From a virus (Duplodnaviria > Heunggongvirae > Uroviricota > Caudoviricetes), in IMG/VR virus record IMGVR_UViG_2690316188_000015: a stretch of DNA of 6,926 nucleotides; one strand, given 5' to 3'. A program made the position numbers and the translations under genes. This document shows positions 944 through 6,926 of the stretch, one piece after another. Positions within the stretch are counted from its first letter, which is position 1. Each line of letters starts with the position of its first letter. The notes beneath the pieces were generated by a model. The model was not told the DNA's origin. It did no database searches and worked only from the letters and a program-made list of their open reading frames with translations.

Positions 944-1111
944 TCAAGCATTATGCAGGCTGTTTCTTTTTATCACCGGCCACAGCAATACCACAATGCC
1001 GCAGACCAGCACCCCATCCGCCAGCACCGACATGATTCTGCTGGTGAGATCCACCATCACCACCAGAAACAGCAGGAGTGCAGCCACAGCCAGGCGCAGT
1101 TTTACCGTCAC
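944..1111 (-). CDS. Candidate small hydrophobic membrane peptide (55 aa from GTG), possibly translationally coupled to the upstream TerB-like gene
   Basis: GTG start overlaps the TerB-like stop (GTGA overlap). Translation VTVKLRLAVAALLLFLVVMVDLTSRIMSVLADGVLVCGIVVLLWPVIKRNSLHNA has two hydrophobic segments. Below the ORF-track size cutoff. GC-rich region with several open frames, so it may be spurious. Confidence 0.25.
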   Translation of the reverse strand: MTVKLRLAVAALLLFLVVMVDLTSRIMSVLADGVLVCGIVVLLWPVIKRNSLHNA

Positions 1112-1539
1112 AGGTGATTCTCCAGACGAAGACCCAGAACACCGGCAATCTCTTCCAGCACCTTGCGCTCTTCCGGCTCAATTTCGCCGTCTGCCTCCGC
1201 AATGGCCACCGCCACATCCAGCACATCTTCCGCTTCACGCGTATCGTGTTTCACATCCTCAATCTCGCGTAACGCGGCACGACGACCAATTTTAAAATTG
1301 GTATCCAGCTGACCGATAATGGTTGCGCTAATCGCATTAATTTCCGAGGTAAACGCAGACAACGCAGGCTGATTACGTAAGACCTGTTCGATCTTCGCTT
1401 TCTCGGATGCCTCGCATTCACCATCTGCATAGGCCACCAGGTATGCAGCGTTAATCACCGCCTGTGCCAGATCGCGTTTCTCAAACTTTTTAATTTCCGC
1501 TGCCGCTCTGCGGGTTTTCTTTTTGAAGATTCCAAACAT
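1108..1539 (-). CDS. TerB-like (tellurite-resistance TerB family) protein, 143 aa
   Basis: ATG at 1539-1537 with AGGAAC Shine-Dalgarno 7-8 nt upstream. Protein MFGIFKKK...ADGECEASEKAKIEQVL...EADGEIEPEERKVLEEIAGVLGL has the paired ADG/DG plus acidic-helix organisation of TerB. The ORF-track N-terminal extension (start 1611) lacks an RBS. Confidence 0.75.
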   Translation of the reverse strand: MFGIFKKKTRRAAAEIKKFEKRDLAQAVINAAYLVAYADGECEASEKAKIEQVLRNQPALSAFTSEINAISATIIGQLDTNFKIGRRAALREIEDVKHDTREAEDVLDVAVAIAEADGEIEPEERKVLEEIAGVLGLRLENHL

Positions 1540-1671
1540 CGTGACGTTCCTTTGGGTGGGTGAGCCAACGCCCGGGAGCGATCTGCCCACAGAGAAAGTC
1601 ACACTGACCACTCCGTAAGCTCACCCCCGAAAGGCTCTGTGGTTGATATGCGCCGGGCGTGGCGCAGATAC

Positions 1672-1708: not shown

Positions 1709-1785
1709 TGGCGCGTTGTAGTGGAGTCTAACCACTGACCGATTGCTTAGAAGGCAATTGCTCTGTCCGACTGAGCTAACAACGC
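1709..1785 (-). tRNA. argO: tRNA-Arg (anticodon UCU), 77 nt with encoded CCA
   Basis: Manual fold: acceptor GCGTTGT/ACAACGC, D-stem GCTC/GAGC, anticodon stem ATTGC/GCAAT with loop CTTCTAA, CCA encoded. The T-loop TTAGACT is atypical. The symbol is assigned by position in the phage tRNA trio, not by sequence match. Confidence 0.7.
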
Positions 1786-1798
1786 ATGATGCTGATAA

Positions 1799-1875
1799 TG
1801 GACCGCCATCGGGGACTTGAACCCCGCGCAGCCAGCTTCGAAGGCTGGCGCTCTGTCCCGATGAGCTAATAGCGG
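1799..1875 (-). tRNA. argN: tRNA-Arg (anticodon UCG), 77 nt with encoded CCA
   Basis: Acceptor CCGCTAT/ATGGCGG (one G-U pair), D-stem GCTC/GAGC, anticodon stem CCAGC/GCTGG with loop CTTCGAA, T-arm CGGGG-TTCAAGT-CCCCG, CCA encoded. Symbol assigned by position only. Confidence 0.75.
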
Positions 1876-1884
1876 TATGTAATA

Positions 1885-1960
1885 TGGTGGCCCTTGCTGG
1901 ATTTGAACCAGCGACCTGGCGATTATGAGTCGCTCGCTCTCACCACTGAGCTAAAGGGCC
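1885..1960 (-). tRNA. ileZ: tRNA with CAU anticodon, ileX/ileZ-like (tRNA-Ile2 reading AUA after lysidine modification; formally a Met anticodon), 76 nt
   Basis: Sequence GGCCCTTTAGCTCAGTGGTGAGAGCGAGCGACTCATAATCGCCAGGTCGCTGGTTCAAATCCAGCAAGGGCCACCA closely resembles E. coli tRNA-Ile2 as recalled; canonical cloverleaf with T-loop TTCAAAT. Confidence 0.8.
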
Positions 1961-1988: not shown

Positions 1989-2702
1989 TCAATAATCAAG
2001 CCCTTGCCTGGATACATATCTGTCTGGCGGGAAGCCATAATAGCGGTGAAATACAGAAATAAAGTAGGACCTGCTTGAATAACCGCATTTTTCTGCTATA
2101 GCCTGTCCATATCCATGCCGGGAACATAACATATTTACAGCAACACGCATCCGCTCTTCCAGCAACAAGCGACTGAACATGCCCCCTTCATTTTTCAGTT
2201 TTGTCTTTAACAAACTCTCACTCATATGCAACTGTAGAGCAATCGCACCAAGCGTCCAGCTTGCTGATATATCTGTCTGAATTATCGCCCTGACTTTGGC
2301 ACTTATGCTGGATAAACATCCACTTAAAAACAATGACATCCGTTCATCTGTTTCAAACAGAGACAGGCAGGCCATCATAAGAAACATATCCGTGGCCTCT
2401 CCGGAAAATCCCTGGCTGGTAATTAAAGCCGCAGCCAACGCAGGATTGTTGGGTTCCAGCAACAGGTAAAGCGGAATGTCAGTCAGACGAGTCCTCGTCA
2501 GCTTATGCTGACTTTCCAGATATTGACTTACGACGGATTCGCTTATATCGACAATTTTAACTTTGCCATAATGCATAAGGAAAAGCTCCCTGATGCATTT
2601 GGTGGCCAGAACAACTGAGCCTGGCTTAAGTGACAACGTATCCTTTTCAAGAAAAATATTAATTGGGGAGCAAACCATGATAACTGAACAGACAACAGCC
2701 AT
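1989..2702 (-). CDS. AraC/XylS-family transcriptional regulator (AppY/YdeO/GadX-like subfamily), 237 aa, intact copy
   Basis: C-terminal region has both AraC-type helix-turn-helix motifs (WTLGAIALQLHMSESLLKTKLKNEGG... and AIAEKCGYSSRSYFISVFHRYYGFPP). N-terminus MAVVCSV resembles AppY-type regulators. Low GC. Confidence 0.85.
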   Translation of the reverse strand: MAVVCSVIMVCSPINIFLEKDTLSLKPGSVVLATKCIRELFLMHYGKVKIVDISESVVSQYLESQHKLTRTRLTDIPLYLLLEPNNPALAAALITSQGFSGEATDMFLMMACLSLFETDERMSLFLSGCLSSISAKVRAIIQTDISASWTLGAIALQLHMSESLLKTKLKNEGGMFSRLLLEERMRVAVNMLCSRHGYGQAIAEKCGYSSRSYFISVFHRYYGFPPDRYVSRQGLDY

Positions 2703-2737
2703 TATAATTTTACTTTCATTAGCAATTGGTTAGCTCA

Positions 2738-2768
2738 ATTATAGCCCCAAAAGGTAAATTATCATCAA
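2738..2768 (-). promoter_or_regulatory. Possible sigma70 promoter for the AraC-family gene: -35 TTGATG, 19-bp spacer, -10 TATAAT
   Basis: Perfect TATAAT on the minus strand about 36 nt upstream of the ATG. The -35 is weak and the spacer is long. An identical copy lies at 4129-4159 upstream of the truncated paralog. Confidence 0.3.
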
Positions 2769-2821
2769 CACATAAGCAAAGGACTGACAGGTGTCGCCCC
2801 CCCACCAGCCGCCCATTCACC

Positions 2822-2850
2822 ACAAATAAAAAGCCTTCAGGACTGAAGGC
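2822..2850 (-). terminator. Rho-independent terminator overlapping the stop codon of the 65-aa ORF
   Basis: Minus strand reads GCCTTCA-GTCC-TGAAGGC followed by TTTTTATTT. Confidence 0.6.
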
Positions 2851-3034
2851 GTCTGTAACAACCGCACTGATAGTCTGCCAGACCCGCCATAACAAGCTGG
2901 GTCAGTATTAACTGGCAGCGTTCGCGTGAAAGGTAAGTATTCTGCGCAATCTCCCCGACTGTCGCCGGTTCGGTAACGCTTAATTCATCAAACACAACTC
3001 TGGCGGTTTCTGTCATATCCTGCTGTTTCAGCAT
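2837..3034 (-). CDS. Small hypothetical protein (65 aa, or 59 aa from the second ATG), possible helix-turn-helix DNA-binding protein; copy A
   Basis: ORF with AAGGG about 9 nt upstream of the ATG. The only difference from copy B in this ORF is a synonymous change (GTT vs GTC Val at codon 20). Segment TVGEIAQNTYLSRERCQLILTQL is HTH-like. Function unknown. Confidence 0.5.
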   Translation of the reverse strand: MLKQQDMTETARVVFDELSVTEPATVGEIAQNTYLSRERCQLILTQLVMAGLADYQCGCYRRLQS

Positions 3035-3158
3035 GTCTTTTTACCCTTTCCGGTTAACGTGACATACCAATAACTCTTGTCTAAAAAGCCAGCAAGATAA
3101 AAAGCCAGTATTCACGACCACCAGCGTGTTTACTGTACTGCACCAGGTTTACAGGTAC

Positions 3159-3180
3159 AAAAAAACCGCTCAGCGGCGGG
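3159..3180 (-). terminator. Weak candidate terminator in the tail of repeat copy A
   Basis: Minus strand has a short CCGC/GCGG stem followed by TTTTTTT. The homologous site in copy B has a 5-bp stem. Confidence 0.35.
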
Positions 3181-3312
3181 TTTAAGTTGTGTGGCGAAGT
3201 AACCACTCTTAACACACTAATAGCATTTTTGTTATAACACAAGTAGCTCATTCAGTATTTTTAGAATCTTGACTTTCTTAAGCACGGAGAACTCTGAATA
3301 CCAAACATAAAA

Positions 3313-3546
3313 TCAATTATCTTCCAGGCCGGATGCTATCAACGAAAGCCTCTCAAAAAACGCTGTAGCAGCCTTGTCCAAAGTTGAATAAGTACTGTAT
3401 TCTCCGTGTTCGGGACCAACCACTACCCATGGTCGTCTTTTTGGGATTCGGGACTTCTCAGAAATCACTGTTCCAGATATACCAATATCAATTGTTACAC
3501 CTGTTATTATTTTCTCTTCATCTCTTTCCCTGAACTCAATTGCCAT
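3313..3546 (-). CDS. Hypothetical 77-aa ORF in the unique segment between the two repeat copies; possibly a gene remnant
   Basis: ORF-track ORF starting 19 bp inside the unique segment. No Shine-Dalgarno (A-rich upstream). No family recognised. Confidence 0.25.
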   Translation of the reverse strand: MAIEFRERDEEKIITGVTIDIGISGTVISEKSRIPKRRPWVVVGPEHGEYSTYSTLDKAATAFFERLSLIASGLEDN

Positions 3547-4093
3547 AAATGCCGTTTTTTTTTATGAACATGCCCCCTTCATTTTTCAGTTTTGTCTTTA
3601 ACAAACTCTCACTCATATGCAACTGTAGAGCAATCGCACCAAGCGTCCAGCTTGCTGATATATCTGTCTGAATTATCGCCCTGACTTTGGCACTTATGCT
3701 GGATAAACATCCACTTAAAAACAATGACATCCGTTCATCTGTTTCAAACAGAGACAGGCAGGCCATCATAAGAAACATATCCGTGGCCTCTCCGGAAAAT
3801 CCCTGGCTGGTAATTAAAGCCGCAGCCAACGCAGGATTGTTGGGTTCCAGCAACAGGTAAAGCGGAATGTCAGTCAGACGAGTCCTCGTCAGCTTATGCT
3901 GACTTTCCAGATATTGACTTACGACGGATTCGCTTATATCGACAATTTTAACTTTGCCATAATGCATAAGGAAAAGCTCCCTGATGCATTTGGTGGCCAG
4001 AACAACTGAGCCTGGCTTAAGTGACAACGTATCCTTTTCAAGAAAAATATTAATTGGGGAGCAAACCATGATAACTGAACAGACAACAGCCAT
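3536..4093 (-). pseudogene. Truncated paralog of the AraC-family regulator: N-terminal domain plus first HTH, residues 1-176 identical to copy A, then 9 unrelated codons and a stop
   Basis: Identical to copy A through ...KLKNEGGMF, then diverges exactly at the repeat boundary (3565) into IKKNGIYGN-stop. The second HTH is missing. Confidence 0.7.
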
Positions 4094-4212
4094 TATAATT
4101 TTACTTTCATTAGCAATTGGTTAGCTCAATTATAGCCCCAAAAGGTAAATTATCATCAACACATAAGCAAAGGACTGACAGGTGTCGCCCCCCCACCAGC
4201 CGCCCATTCACC

Positions 4213-4241
4213 ACAAATAAAAAGCCTTCAGGACTGAAGGC
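4213..4241 (-). terminator. Rho-independent terminator after the 65-aa ORF, copy B
   Basis: Identical to the terminator at 2822-2850. Confidence 0.6.
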
Positions 4242-4425
4242 GTCTGTAACAACCGCACTGATAGTCTGCCAGACCCGCCATAACAAGCTGGGTCAGTATT
4301 AACTGGCAGCGTTCGCGTGAAAGGTAAGTATTCTGCGCAATCTCCCCGACTGTCGCCGGTTCGGTGACGCTTAATTCATCAAACACAACTCTGGCGGTTT
4401 CTGTCATATCCTGCTGTTTCAGCAT
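4228..4425 (-). CDS. Small hypothetical protein (65 aa), copy B; protein identical to copy A
   Basis: Same ORF as 2837-3034 within the duplicated core. Confidence 0.5.
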   Translation of the reverse strand: MLKQQDMTETARVVFDELSVTEPATVGEIAQNTYLSRERCQLILTQLVMAGLADYQCGCYRRLQS

Positions 4426-4548
4426 GTCTTTTTACCCTTTCCGGTTAACGTGACACACCAATAACTCTTGCCGAAAAAGCCAGCAAGCTGAAAGACCTGT
4501 ATTAATAACTACCAGCACATTTAACGCACTGCGCTACTTTGCGGGCAC

Positions 4549-4571
4549 AAAAAACCCGCTCAGAGGCGGGG
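4549..4571 (-). terminator. Candidate rho-independent terminator between the CPBP gene and repeat copy B
   Basis: Minus strand reads CCCGC-CTCTGA-GCGGG followed by TTTTTTG, about 150 nt downstream of the CPBP stop. Confidence 0.5.
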
Positions 4572-4711
4572 TCAAGCTATGCGGCGAAATAACCACTCTT
4601 AACAGCATACCTGATTTTTTACGTACGTAAATGCTTTGCCGTGCATATTTTTCATGCAAATGTCACGTCCTGCTATTTTTCAGTCTTATAAATTTAAAAC
4701 CATAGAAAAAA

Positions 4712-5530
4712 TCAATTATGTTTTAAAAATGGATAGGTAAAGAATAACAAGTGACACAGATTCAAACCAAAATGGAAAAGGGTGGCAACCCACAAACGCC
4801 CACTCCACATCCATGACAATCCATACACAACACCAGATAACGTGGCAAATAATACAAGTAAAGCACCACCTGAATAGTGATAAAAACCAAACAACAAAGC
4901 CGCCACAATTAATGCAACCAATGGAGACGTTACTTCTGATAGCCGTGATTGAATATACCCTCTAAATAATGATTCCTCTGCCAGAGACACAAAAAACAAA
5001 TTAGCCAATATAAACTCTGGCAACCACTCAGGAAAATGAATCTCTGGCTTTAATCCACCAAAAAAAACAGCCAAAAACAGGATAAGAGGAACAGAGAGCG
5101 ACAGAGCCCCCCACTTCCACAAAGACACTTCTGATTTTACTTCTTTTTTAAACAAAGAAGATGTACACAGGACTAACAAAAATGGCACCAGCGCTTTATC
5201 AAAATTAAAATACATTGTATAGGGAGTACTTTGAGGGCCAACAGTAACAGAATTTAGCACTACAGGATTGTGAAACCCTGGCCATAGATGGAAAGATAAT
5301 GCTATGGCTGATAAAACTATGCCAACTTCATATATAGATTTAGCCCAGGCGTTATATTTCCAGTTGAACTTCAAAATAATAAAAAAAACGATTGTAGCAA
5401 CAAAAAATAACACCGACCAATCAATAATATCATTAAGCACAGCCAGGACAACAGACACCGTCAACAATGAAAAAGCCACTACCTTATGCCAACTGAGAGT
5501 TGACAGTGACAGTACTAACACAATCCACAT
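4712..5530 (-). CDS. CPBP-family (CAAX protease / Abi-domain, PF02517-like) intramembrane metalloprotease, about 272 aa
   Basis: ATG at 5530-5528 with AGGAG and a 5-nt spacer (the ORF-track GTG at 5536 is rejected). Polytopic hydrophobic protein with all three CPBP motifs: EESLFR (EExxxR), FGFYH (FxxxH) and HFGLN (HxxxN). Low GC, roughly 38% by eye. Confidence 0.8.
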   Translation of the reverse strand: MWIVLVLSLSTLSWHKVVAFSLLTVSVVLAVLNDIIDWSVLFFVATIVFFIILKFNWKYNAWAKSIYEVGIVLSAIALSFHLWPGFHNPVVLNSVTVGPQSTPYTMYFNFDKALVPFLLVLCTSSLFKKEVKSEVSLWKWGALSLSVPLILFLAVFFGGLKPEIHFPEWLPEFILANLFFVSLAEESLFRGYIQSRLSEVTSPLVALIVAALLFGFYHYSGGALLVLFATLSGVVYGLSWMWSGRLWVATLFHFGLNLCHLLFFTYPFLKHN

Positions 5531-5681
5531 AAGCACTCCTTTTATTTAATGATGAAGATTGATTATCAATATTTTCAATTCACCAGGCAACATTTTATCT
5601 ACCTTCCACAATACATGACCATCAAAAAATAAACATGTTAATTATAAACACAGAAAACATAACCCTCATCACTATATATCC
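5531..5681 (-). promoter_or_regulatory. AT-rich region immediately downstream of Q; expected location of the Q-dependent late promoter and Q-utilisation site
   Basis: Positional inference from lambdoid phage organisation. Several -10-like hexamers are present (TATAAT, TAAAAT) but no element could be assigned confidently. Confidence 0.3.
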
Positions 5682-6053
5682 CTACCGCATATCCATATCT
5701 AACCGGACATTCAGAGCCATAAGCATTCCTTCAATAATACCTTCCGCTTTATAAAGCCTTTTACCAATAAGCCCATCAGAACATCTATGCTTACGTGCAA
5801 GAGCCATAAATGTCATTCCACCTACGTAATAATCCACCAACAAATCGTGCAAATACTGATTATTCTTGTTTAATCGTGCCATACAACCACAAATTATCAT
5901 GGCGTCATCATCAGAACACTGAGGACGTGATTTCACTTTAGTCGGGATTAATCCTTTAAAACCAGCAGCTATCGAGGGCCATGTTACATCTTCATGATTA
6001 TTTGCTGCCCATGCCCCCCATCGCTCAAGAACCATCTGGATATCACGCGCCAT
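5682..6053 (-). CDS. Q: Late-gene antiterminator Q (QuuD/phage-82-type), 123 aa from the ATG
   Basis: Protein [25 protein letters not shown]...[14 protein letters not shown]... closely resembles E. coli prophage QuuD-type Q as recalled. GAGGTGG Shine-Dalgarno before the ATG at 6053; start overlaps the end of rusA. Confidence 0.85.
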
Positions 6054-6414
6054 CGTTACCACCTCTGATTTCGTAAATCTTCACGCCCAGCCGTCCACCT
6101 GGCACAGGCTGACCGCGCACAATATTGATTTCATCAAACTGCTCGTCATCAATGAGCACTTCCGCATGCGTCAGCGCATCCAGCGGTGCTTTCAGAATGT
6201 TGTCCAGGTCACGGCGGCGCTTATCCGGTGGTTCTGCAATAATTTTTATTGCCAGCCGTCCGGACAGGCTTAATTTCAGCCGCTGCTGGCGAACAATAAG
6301 CGCCACAGCCCGGCGATAACGCTCACCGGCTTTTGATACAAAATATGTGCTGCCACGACGTCGCCAGTAGGTGTTCACCGTCGGCGGGTAAGGCAAAACA
6401 AACTCTATACGCAT
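6043..6414 (-). CDS. rusA: RusA-family Holliday-junction resolvase, 123 aa
   Basis: AAGAGG Shine-Dalgarno 6 nt before the ATG at 6414. Motifs [19 protein letters not shown] and GGRLGV match the RusA family (compare DLP12 RusA ...PDRRRRDLDNLQKAAFDAL...). Position immediately upstream of Q is typical. Confidence 0.85.
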
Positions 6415-6426
6415 CAGTAACCTCTT

Positions 6427-6926
6427 TTACCCGAGCACGCCGGTTGCAAAAGCGTGATCAAGAAAACGAAAAATTAAATCAACCTGGGAACCATGCTTTT
6501 CTTCGAACGCCAGCGGATCCGCATGAAGCTCGTTGTGATGCTCCCGACACAGCGGTAGCGTGAAAATATCGTGGGATTTTGTTCCCATTCCACCCTGACC
6601 ATGACCAATCAGATGATGAGGATCGTCCGCTGGCTTACCACAACACGCACACGGCTGTGTCTTTACCCAGCGTGTGTATTTCTCATTTACCCAGCGGCGA
6701 CGTTTAGGTCGTTTCATGAAGGATTCCGGAGACTCCGGATCAACGGCAATGCTGACCACCGTCTTTTCCTGTGGTGGGTTCTGTTGCTGGTGGGTGTGAG
6801 GCGGTAGCGCAATATTTTTTGTGCGCTGCTTCAGTATGCTGGTGGCGGTCTGTTCTCCCGGTATGATGTCGCTTTCACGGTATACGGAGCGGATTTTTTC
6901 CGCCGGTAATCCCAGAGAACGACGCG
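6427..6926 (-). CDS. DUF968-like protein with HNH-like Cys/His cluster; partial, 5' end beyond window
   Basis: The reading frame is open from the window edge (6926) to the stop at 6427. The ORF-track GTG at 6759 is only the first in-window start codon. Motif CACCGKPADDPHHLIGHG...CREHHNELH is present. Confidence 0.65.
   Translation of the reverse strand, partial: RRSLGLPAEKIRSVYRESDIIPGEQTATSILKQRTKNIALPPHTHQQQNPPQEKTVVSIAVDPESPESFMKRPKRRRWVNEKYTRWVKTQPCACCGKPADDPHHLIGHGQGGMGTKSHDIFTLPLCREHHNELHADPLAFEEKHGSQVDLIFRFLDHAFATGVLG

Follow-up and report, generated by a model that had tools for sequence, protein, structure and literature searches.

Gene content of the window and the CPBP gene

We analysed a stretch of 6,926 nucleotides (nt) from the virus record IMGVR_UViG_2690316188_000015 (Caudoviricetes). 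The whole stretch is referred to as the window and all positions are counted from its first letter. On the minus strand of the window the genes follow one another in the order DUF968 gene, rusA, the antiterminator gene Q, a gene for an intramembrane protease of the CPBP family, a TrmB-like small open reading frame (ORF) with an AraC-type regulator (this unit occurs twice), three tRNA genes and a TerB-like ORF. The subject of this study is the CPBP gene. An earlier note on this DNA, made from the letters alone, had assigned positions 4712-5681 to such a protease, placed it in the toxin-gene neighbourhood of Shiga toxin (Stx) phages and proposed it as a candidate for a prophage-encoded exclusion, immunity or defence function. 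By its sequence the gene is an already known one, the orthologue of Z1787 of E. coli O157:H7 EDL933 (prophage CP-933N, O-island 50), and it stands between Q and a homologue of the late promoter PR'. The features at the locus are the following.

5682..6062, minus strand: Q antiterminator of the Q21/Q933 family (PF06530, E = 4.9e-52; PGAP places the start at 6053)
5531..5681, minus strand: Q-CPBP intergenic region (151 nt, AT-rich, 28% GC)
5536..5541, minus strand: ribosome-binding site AAGGAG, 5 nt ahead of the ATG, read from the sequence
4712..5530, minus strand: gene for a CPBP/Rce1-like glutamic intramembrane endopeptidase (819 nt, 272 amino acids (aa); PF02517, PGAP, phrog_13291)
5381..5388, minus strand: T8 homopolymer run inside the coding sequence (T7 variants are frameshifted)
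4961..4978, minus strand: motif 1, EESLFR (E185-R190), fits EExxxR
4877..4891, minus strand: motif 2, FGFYH (F214-H218), fits FxxxH
4760..4774, minus strand: motif 3, HFGLN (H253-N257), fits HxxxN

The minus-strand ORF in the ORF list covers 4712-5536 and begins with GTG. The ATG at 5530 seems the likelier start; AAGGAG precedes it and PGAP picks the same codon. The span first described therefore divides into a real gene at 4712-5530 and an intergenic part at 5531-5681 that is not coding. Other details of the earlier description were borne out: the ribosome-binding site is in place, the upstream neighbour is a PF06530 Q, and the GC content of the coding sequence is low with 37.9% compared to 53% for rusA and about 50% for the phage backbone and flanks.

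Against PF02517 (Rce1-like) the protein reached E = 1.4e-19 and 70.6 bits, well over the gathering score of 22.4, and residues 171-260 covered profile positions 3-92 of 93. The family proposed in the earlier note is thus confirmed. All three catalytic motifs that it had pointed out are present and are kept across an alignment of 38 homologues, in which E185, E186, R190, H218 and H253 are invariant and N257 is conserved in at least 90% of the sequences. The same alignment contains a family-specific conserved segment, HLxPGFHN...GPxSxPFxMYYNFDKALVPF, at residues ~81-117. We used the alignment to build an AlphaFold2 model, which is almost wholly helical with ~8-9 long helices (residues 2-32, 39-56, 61-79, 110-120, 137-156, 170-198, 203-217, 223-243 and 246-263) and has a mean predicted local distance difference test (pLDDT) value of 95.2 and a predicted template modelling score (pTM) of 0.92. 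The hydropathy peaks agree with a polytopic membrane topology, and together with the model they give a membrane protein of ~8-9 helices. Foldseek placed Rce1 (4CAD) and SpdC (6U0O) first among the PDB entries, and no other CPBP folds have been solved; the scores were weak (E = 0.03-0.05, template modelling score 0.36-0.45). In NCBIfam every specific model remained far under its cut-off and the only matches were sub-threshold ones to myxosortase or ABC-permease-CPBP models. Taken together, motifs and model indicate that the protein is a catalytically intact, membrane-embedded Rce1-type protease, the activity being predicted from the motifs.

With the type II CAAX prenyl endopeptidase Rce1 (MmRce1, 4CAD), SpdC/LyrA (6U0O), MroQ, PlnI/SkkI and the myxosortases the present protein shares the PF02517 core, in which EExxxR, FxxxH and HxxxN sit on successive helices. 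It differs from them in its own conserved segment at ~81-117 and in that a phmmer search against PDB chain sequences returned nothing. In contrast to PlnI/SkkI-type self-immunity and the myxosortases, we found no bacteriocin, sorting-tag substrate or partner genes near the present gene.

Position relative to the late promoter

We aligned the regions downstream of the CPBP gene for loci in which this gene is 59-83% identical to the copy in the window. The alignment revealed a near-invariant element consisting of TTTACGTACGTAAA, 8 nt, TATnnT, GTTAAGAGTGGTTAC, a GC hairpin and a T run. The palindrome TTTACGTACGTAAA has a single occurrence in the window, where the element reads as follows.

4549..4631, minus strand: PR' cassette homologue, 75-85% identical to the Stx2-phage region after the Q stop
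4626-4631, minus strand: -35 hexamer TTTACG, within the palindrome TTTACGTACGTAAA (4618-4631)
4604-4609, minus strand: -10 hexamer TATGCT after a 16-nt spacer, with a predicted start near 4597
4555-4570, minus strand: leader hairpin CCCGC...GCGGG, followed by a T run at 4549-4554

The element is 75-85% identical to a segment upstream of the holin gene in phage 434 and PA-2, where it follows a reverse-strand porin gene, and in the Stx2 phages P13374 and Sakai Sp5 it starts right at the stop codon of Q. For Sp5, differential RNA sequencing put the PR' start at a distance of 258 nt upstream of the tR' end seen by Term-seq (Sy et al. 2020). When these 258 nt are measured off on the Sakai sequence from the T run of tR', the PR' start falls 7 nt past TATCAT; TTTACG lies 16 nt upstream. 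The curated record of phage 21 is equally compact and holds the -35, the Q-binding element (QBE) in the spacer, the -10, the pause element (SDPE) and the terminator within ~85 nt. The Q of the window shows a distant match to the Q21 structure 6P18 (E = 7e-8). With the Q of the Sakai Stx2 phage Sp5 it shares 81% identity over 119 aa, and because of this identity the same Q-binding promoter would be expected in the window. From these alignments we conclude that 4549-4631 is the PR' cassette and that the CPBP gene stands between Q and PR'. Neither the CPBP region nor the PR' element has a family in Rfam.

Two other arrangements were considered. In the first, PR' would directly follow Q and a long leader from PR' to tR' would contain the CPBP gene. 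It was rejected since the conserved element is the one that adjoins Q in the Stx2 phages and has the promoter hexamers where the start was mapped; nothing homologous to the PR' element was seen in the Q-CPBP gap. An alternative register, with TAAAAA as the -10 and TATGCT as the pause element, was dropped as it lacks a conserved -35.

With stx of 933W and Sp5 the locus has in common the lambdoid late-regulatory region, a related Q (81%), PR' and the tRNA genes. The position of the cargo is different: stx is placed downstream of PR', tR' and the tRNAs in Stx phages and depends on Q antitermination, whereas the CPBP stop codon at 4712 is upstream of the PR' homologue, so the toxin-gene neighbourhood claimed for the gene is not supported. 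Standing upstream of PR', the gene would lie outside the Q-antiterminated late transcript, and by its position it does not appear to be stx-type, Q-dependent late cargo. The terminator scan reported a hairpin at 4555-4570 with a subsequent T run downstream of the gene. This hairpin had been read as the gene's own terminator, but it is the PR' leader hairpin, which is kept in all related phages whatever the cargo.

Transcription signals between Q and the CPBP gene

Two signals were noted in the AT-rich gap.

5585-5590 and 5562-5567, minus strand: best of the promoter-like sites from the promoter scan, -35 TTGCCT, 17-nt spacer, -10 GATAAT; function putative
5555..5573, minus strand: Fur-box-like 19-mer AATATTGATAATCAATCTT, 14/19 to the consensus, overlapping the putative -10

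A like -35/17/-10 arrangement occurs in the same place in the loci whose CPBP copies are 83%, 62% and 59% identical, and we infer that TTGCCT-17-GATAAT is a putative sigma-70 promoter of the gene's own. The terminator scan found no terminator-like site between Q and the CPBP gene, and an early transcript crossing Q should therefore read into the gene after induction. Coupling of expression to prophage induction, which the earlier note had thought likely, is not required: a Z1787 transcript was observed in uninduced EDL933 and CL56 (Jandu et al. 2009) and the gap holds the promoter-like site.

The Fur-like boxes, together with the published co-induction with iron-uptake genes, are weakly suggestive of iron control through Fur. 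A scan of the chromosomal orthologues for Fur boxes was negative and iron control is therefore not generalisable to the whole CPBP family. A separate observation concerns two loci, L101 and L102, in which a CPBP gene 55% identical to ours lies between a PF03589 Q and the holin gene. Upstream of this gene we found a 17/19 match to the Fur box (GTTAATGATAAACATTATC), ~5 nt before the called start and roughly 40 nt before the conserved MW start.

Variable cargo and linkage to Q

To compare prophages we retrieved 80 IMG/VR loci with the Q protein. The CPBP gene was found in all 23 loci with a Q at least 93% identical and in none of the 57 loci with a Q 83-87% identical, which carried other cargo or none identifiable. 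The gene is thus variable cargo, as the earlier note had suspected, and it is tied to a single group of Q alleles. How far PR' lies from Q varied with the content. In Sp5 and P13374 the distance is 0, and where the CPBP gene is present it is ~1050 nt; a reverse-strand nmpC/lc-type porin gene makes it ~1640 nt (22 loci), forward ORFs 806-1088 nt (21 loci) and small lipoprotein-like ORFs 524-609 nt, other lengths being encountered in a few loci. On these comparisons the Q-PR' gap is a cargo slot separate from the stx site, with an expression logic unlike that of the stx site. The porin genes lc of PA-2 and nmpC of DLP12 resemble the CPBP gene as low-GC cargo with own expression signals between a Q21/Q933-family Q and the PR' element. 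They differ from it in that they lie on the opposite strand and code for outer membrane proteins, whereas the CPBP gene is co-directional with Q and its product would be an inner-membrane enzyme.

CPBP copies with 83%, 62% and 59% identity also follow a PF06530 Q directly, in differing prophage backbones; the Q in front of the 55%-identical copy is the non-homologous PF03589 type. Across the prophage CPBP copies down to 58% identity the ratio of non-synonymous to synonymous divergence (dN/dS) was 0.12-0.29 and all 272 codons were retained without indels. The synonymous divergence of Q and of the CPBP gene was similar (for instance 0.118 and 0.113, or 1.84 and 1.39). Because of the low dN/dS, the lack of indels and the matching synonymous divergence, these data indicate a long linkage of Q and the CPBP gene and purifying selection.

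Among the features of a moron, variable presence and atypical composition were both found. As to autonomy, the promoter-like sites are kept in position, the sole terminator is the shared PR' leader hairpin, and a transcript in uninduced cells is reported in the literature.

The T8 run at 5381..5388 is a source of variation. Loci L028 and L030 have T7 and an early stop, and the protein cluster P0004 (313 sequences, compared to 703 in the full-length cluster; P0009 is also listed) holds a product of 220 aa that starts at residue 53 and looks like a call made after the T-run frameshift. The T8/T7 variation could be decay or slipped-strand switching.

A different signal was noticed in six loci with a Q 84-85% identical (L044, L045, L047, L049, L051 and L073). 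Directly after Q, within the first 160 nt, these have a near-consensus promoter (TTGACC, 18 nt, TATATT) and then two hairpins, one of them with a T run. An ORF6N-like gene follows and the PR' element lies further on. Promoter and hairpins may belong to an unannotated small RNA, or the promoter may be that of the cargo gene.

Identity with Z1787 and distribution in E. coli

Both primers used for the reverse transcription PCR of Z1787 (Jandu et al. 2009) match the coding sequence exactly, at 5493-5513 and 5019-5038. RefSeq lists the protein as WP_000265267/WP_000265265 under the name 'CPBP family intramembrane glutamic endopeptidase'. In PHROG it has a full-length match to phrog_13291, the function of which is listed as unknown. 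The family assignment of the earlier note is thus correct and already in public annotation; some value lies in the rereading of Z1787.

At the DNA level the coding sequence was matched only in those 574 of 5426 complete E. coli genomes that have the prophage copy, where PGAP names a CPBP endopeptidase, and the Q-CPBP segment was found at 99% identity or more in 548 complete genomes. The gene is accordingly present in about one in ten complete E. coli genomes, the main serogroups of enterohaemorrhagic E. coli (EHEC) among them. Carriers include O157:H7, O55:H7, O26, O111, O103, O121 and O145, and between O157:H7, O26, O111, O103, O121 and O145 genomes the gene is 99.9-100% identical. In Sakai it was not found in prophage Sp6 or near Sp12. 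The Z1787 locus shares with the window the Q upstream and the TrmB-like small ORF, the psr-type AraC regulator and the tRNA genes downstream. The window differs from it in the duplication of the small-ORF/psr unit and in a TerB-like gene after the tRNAs.

Z1787 was formerly proposed as a virulence factor. Jandu et al. (2009) described it as a putative protease of O-island 50. Besides the transcript in uninduced cells they reported a 2.66-fold rise on HEp-2 cells, alongside exbB, chuU, entE, chuA and entF, and no induction on T84 cells. Deletion of Z1787 in EDL933 led to a loss of the block of STAT-1 phosphorylation, which complementation restored only partially, and Z1787 placed in HB101 gave a partial effect. 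In 2012 the same laboratory described the STAT-1 inhibitory factor as a still-unidentified secreted protein, and Z1787 does not figure in a 2021 review of O-islands.

Chromosomal relatives

Homologues of the same length with ~50% identity are present in at least 365 species-level genomes of Enterobacterales, from genera such as Providencia, Proteus, Photorhabdus, Xenorhabdus, Serratia, Pantoea, Erwinia, Enterobacter and Cedecea. We compared 80 chromosomal loci (L106-L185). In 36 of them the CPBP gene directly follows modF, with gpmA or gal genes downstream. In other species it occupies unrelated chromosomal sites, again alone, and no other recurrent neighbour or partner gene was found at the 80 loci. 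Because the chromosomal orthologues, which are single-copy in many Enterobacterales, stand without a recurrent partner gene, the target of the family would seem to be something that these bacteria share and not a co-encoded partner. A substrate found for either the prophage or the modF-linked copy would inform both.

For the 36 of 80 species with the modF linkage the median distance from modF to the CPBP gene downstream was 250 nt, both genes having the same orientation. No membrane partner is known for ModF, an ABC-type ATPase; the best NCBIfam match of the CPBP protein, far below the cut-off, was to an 'ABC permease/CPBP' fusion model.

Interpretation and alternative explanations

We consider it probable that the gene is a prophage moron of the Z1787 type, which occupies the Q-PR' gap and codes for a predicted CPBP protease of the inner membrane that serves lysogenic conversion. 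This explanation builds on the family, the intact motifs, the polytopic fold, the position upstream of the PR' homologue, the linkage to one Q allele, the purifying selection and the identity with Z1787, all of which were established in this analysis. In the lysogen a sigma-70 promoter of the gene's own, located in the AT-rich Q-CPBP gap, would drive its transcription, and iron might modulate this via Fur. After induction, read-through of the early transcript across Q would add to this transcription, which would stop at the PR' leader hairpin and would not depend on Q antitermination. The enzyme would then cut a membrane-embedded or membrane-anchored bacterial substrate in the producing cell, and lysogenic conversion would supply E. 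coli with an activity that other Enterobacterales encode on the chromosome. Any effect on STAT-1 signalling in host cells would be indirect. Several observations weigh against this explanation. The putative promoter is a 9/12 consensus match in AT-rich DNA and the Fur-like box is weak (14/19, shuffle p ~0.02) and absent from most chromosomal orthologues. The Sp5 start was placed on the PR' element only via coordinate conversion, using the 258-nt distance to tR'. The set of frameshifted sequences is sizeable and the gene is therefore dispensable in some lineages. A tblastn search of 50,697 INPHARED phage records with the CPBP protein gave no match, and the carriers may be mostly defective prophages, which weakens arguments from a benefit to the phage.

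A role in defence, as proposed in the earlier note, could take the form of superinfection exclusion, abortive infection or immunity to a bacteriocin or microcin that acts on membranes. In its favour, the catalytic residues are kept and the same Q-PR' gap carries the porin gene (lc in PA-2, nmpC in DLP12), a classical lysogenic-conversion gene affecting phage receptors. CPBP/Abi proteins reportedly confer bacteriocin immunity in Gram-positive bacteria, and if the gene is co-induced with TonB-dependent uptake genes, this would agree with immunity to toxins that are taken up when iron is scarce. However, no PADLOC defence model matched the protein at E up to 0.01, and the lack of a toxin, bacteriocin or partner gene, which the earlier note had remarked on for the window, extends to ~190 related loci. 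The ~50%-identical orthologues are chromosomal singletons in a modE-modF-CPBP-gpmA/gal housekeeping setting and not in defence islands, and in the prophages the neighbours are phage regulatory genes. We therefore regard a defence function as unlikely. Quite unlikely, in our view, is a released virulence protease that blocks interferon gamma (IFN-gamma)/STAT-1 signalling in host cells, as put forward by Jandu et al. (2009) on the basis of the EDL933 deletion, the partial effect in HB101 and the rise on HEp-2 cells. Judging from the model, a released protease cannot account for the published STAT-1 phenotype: the protein is integral to the membrane, wholly embedded in it with ~8-9 helices and lacking a soluble domain, which makes release implausible. 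The partial complementation, the absence of induction on T84 cells, the secreted protein still sought in 2012 and the silence of the 2021 review point in the same direction. A polar effect of the knockout on PsrA-type regulation would be a plausible cause of the phenotype, because the gene lies directly upstream of PR' and the psr regulator gene.

A part in the lytic cycle would mean that protease made after induction processes a phage or host membrane protein, for example in the timing of lysis, given that the gene stands a short way ahead of the lysis genes. The order Q, CPBP, PR', holin in several prophages and the long-standing linkage to Q are consistent with this, and early read-through of Q would reach the gene as there is no terminator between. 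Still, the gene is outside the late operon, its relatives are ordinary chromosomal genes and its transcript is found without induction. It is also absent from all INPHARED phages and from most prophages with a related Q, thus it is not needed for growth, and we judge a lytic role very unlikely. Least of all do we expect a passenger without current function that hitch-hikes on a successful Q allele in mostly defective prophages. The T7 variants are common, carrier prophages such as that of O111 11128 are degraded, and the 99-100% identity in 548 genomes may reflect recent spread only. Against this stand the dN/dS of 0.12-0.29 down to 58% identity and the retention of the catalytic residues and of 272 codons with no indels. 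Returning to the conversion gene with an inner-membrane protease, one extension has a low probability: under iron limitation, through Fur, the protease might be induced and mature or destroy a bacterial envelope or exported factor, which would alter the interaction of EHEC with its surroundings. If true, control of the secreted IFN-gamma/STAT-1 inhibitor or immunity to toxins entering via TonB-dependent receptors would be possible, and a housekeeping protease widespread among enterobacteria would, in its phage-borne copy, be serving as a conversion gene.

Further features of the window

The remaining annotated genes outside the repeated unit described below are the following.

6427-6759, minus strand: DUF968 gene
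6043-6414, minus strand: rusA, GC 53%
1709-1960, minus strand: three tRNA genes

The tRNA genes downstream of the CPBP gene were called Met(CAT), Arg and Arg by ARAGORN and Ile, Arg and Arg by PGAP. The gene at 1885-1960 (minus strand) is the one called Met(CAT) by ARAGORN; an identical gene in RefSeq is a tRNA-Ile of the ileZ type with a lysidine-modified CAT. The Ile-Arg-Arg trio is the same as that upstream of stx in Stx phages. Directly after the three tRNA genes we found the TerB-family ORF (1108-1611, minus strand), a 'tellurite resistance' moron of phrog_632. Its site corresponds to the stx site of Stx phages and holds a nanS-p-type esterase gene in O111 11128.

The AraC-type regulator is similar to YdeO/GadX in NCBIfam and corresponds to the prophage Psr regulators described for EHEC. 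Its two copies are part of a direct repeat of 1.04 kb with 96.7% identity (2174-3214 and 3565-4604), which contains the PR' leader hairpin, the TrmB-like ORF of 65 aa and the initial two thirds of the psr-type AraC gene. Of the two psr copies, the one nearer to the promoter (3536-4093) is a truncated form joined to a fragment of 77 aa (3313-3546) that represents the C-terminal part of phrog_8498, and the distal one (1989-2702) is of full length. The second copy of the hairpin (3148-3214) comes without the TTTACG...CGTAAA promoter part. The arrangement of the whole window with this duplication was found in no complete E. coli genome, the best match reaching 91% coverage at 97.7% identity.

Finally, two small RNAs scored above the Rfam gathering score. 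AgvB, an anti-GcvB small RNA, lies at 684-745 on the plus strand with 96.5 bits and is perfect to the consensus, and STnc100 abuts it on the opposite strand at 746-939 with 142.7 bits.

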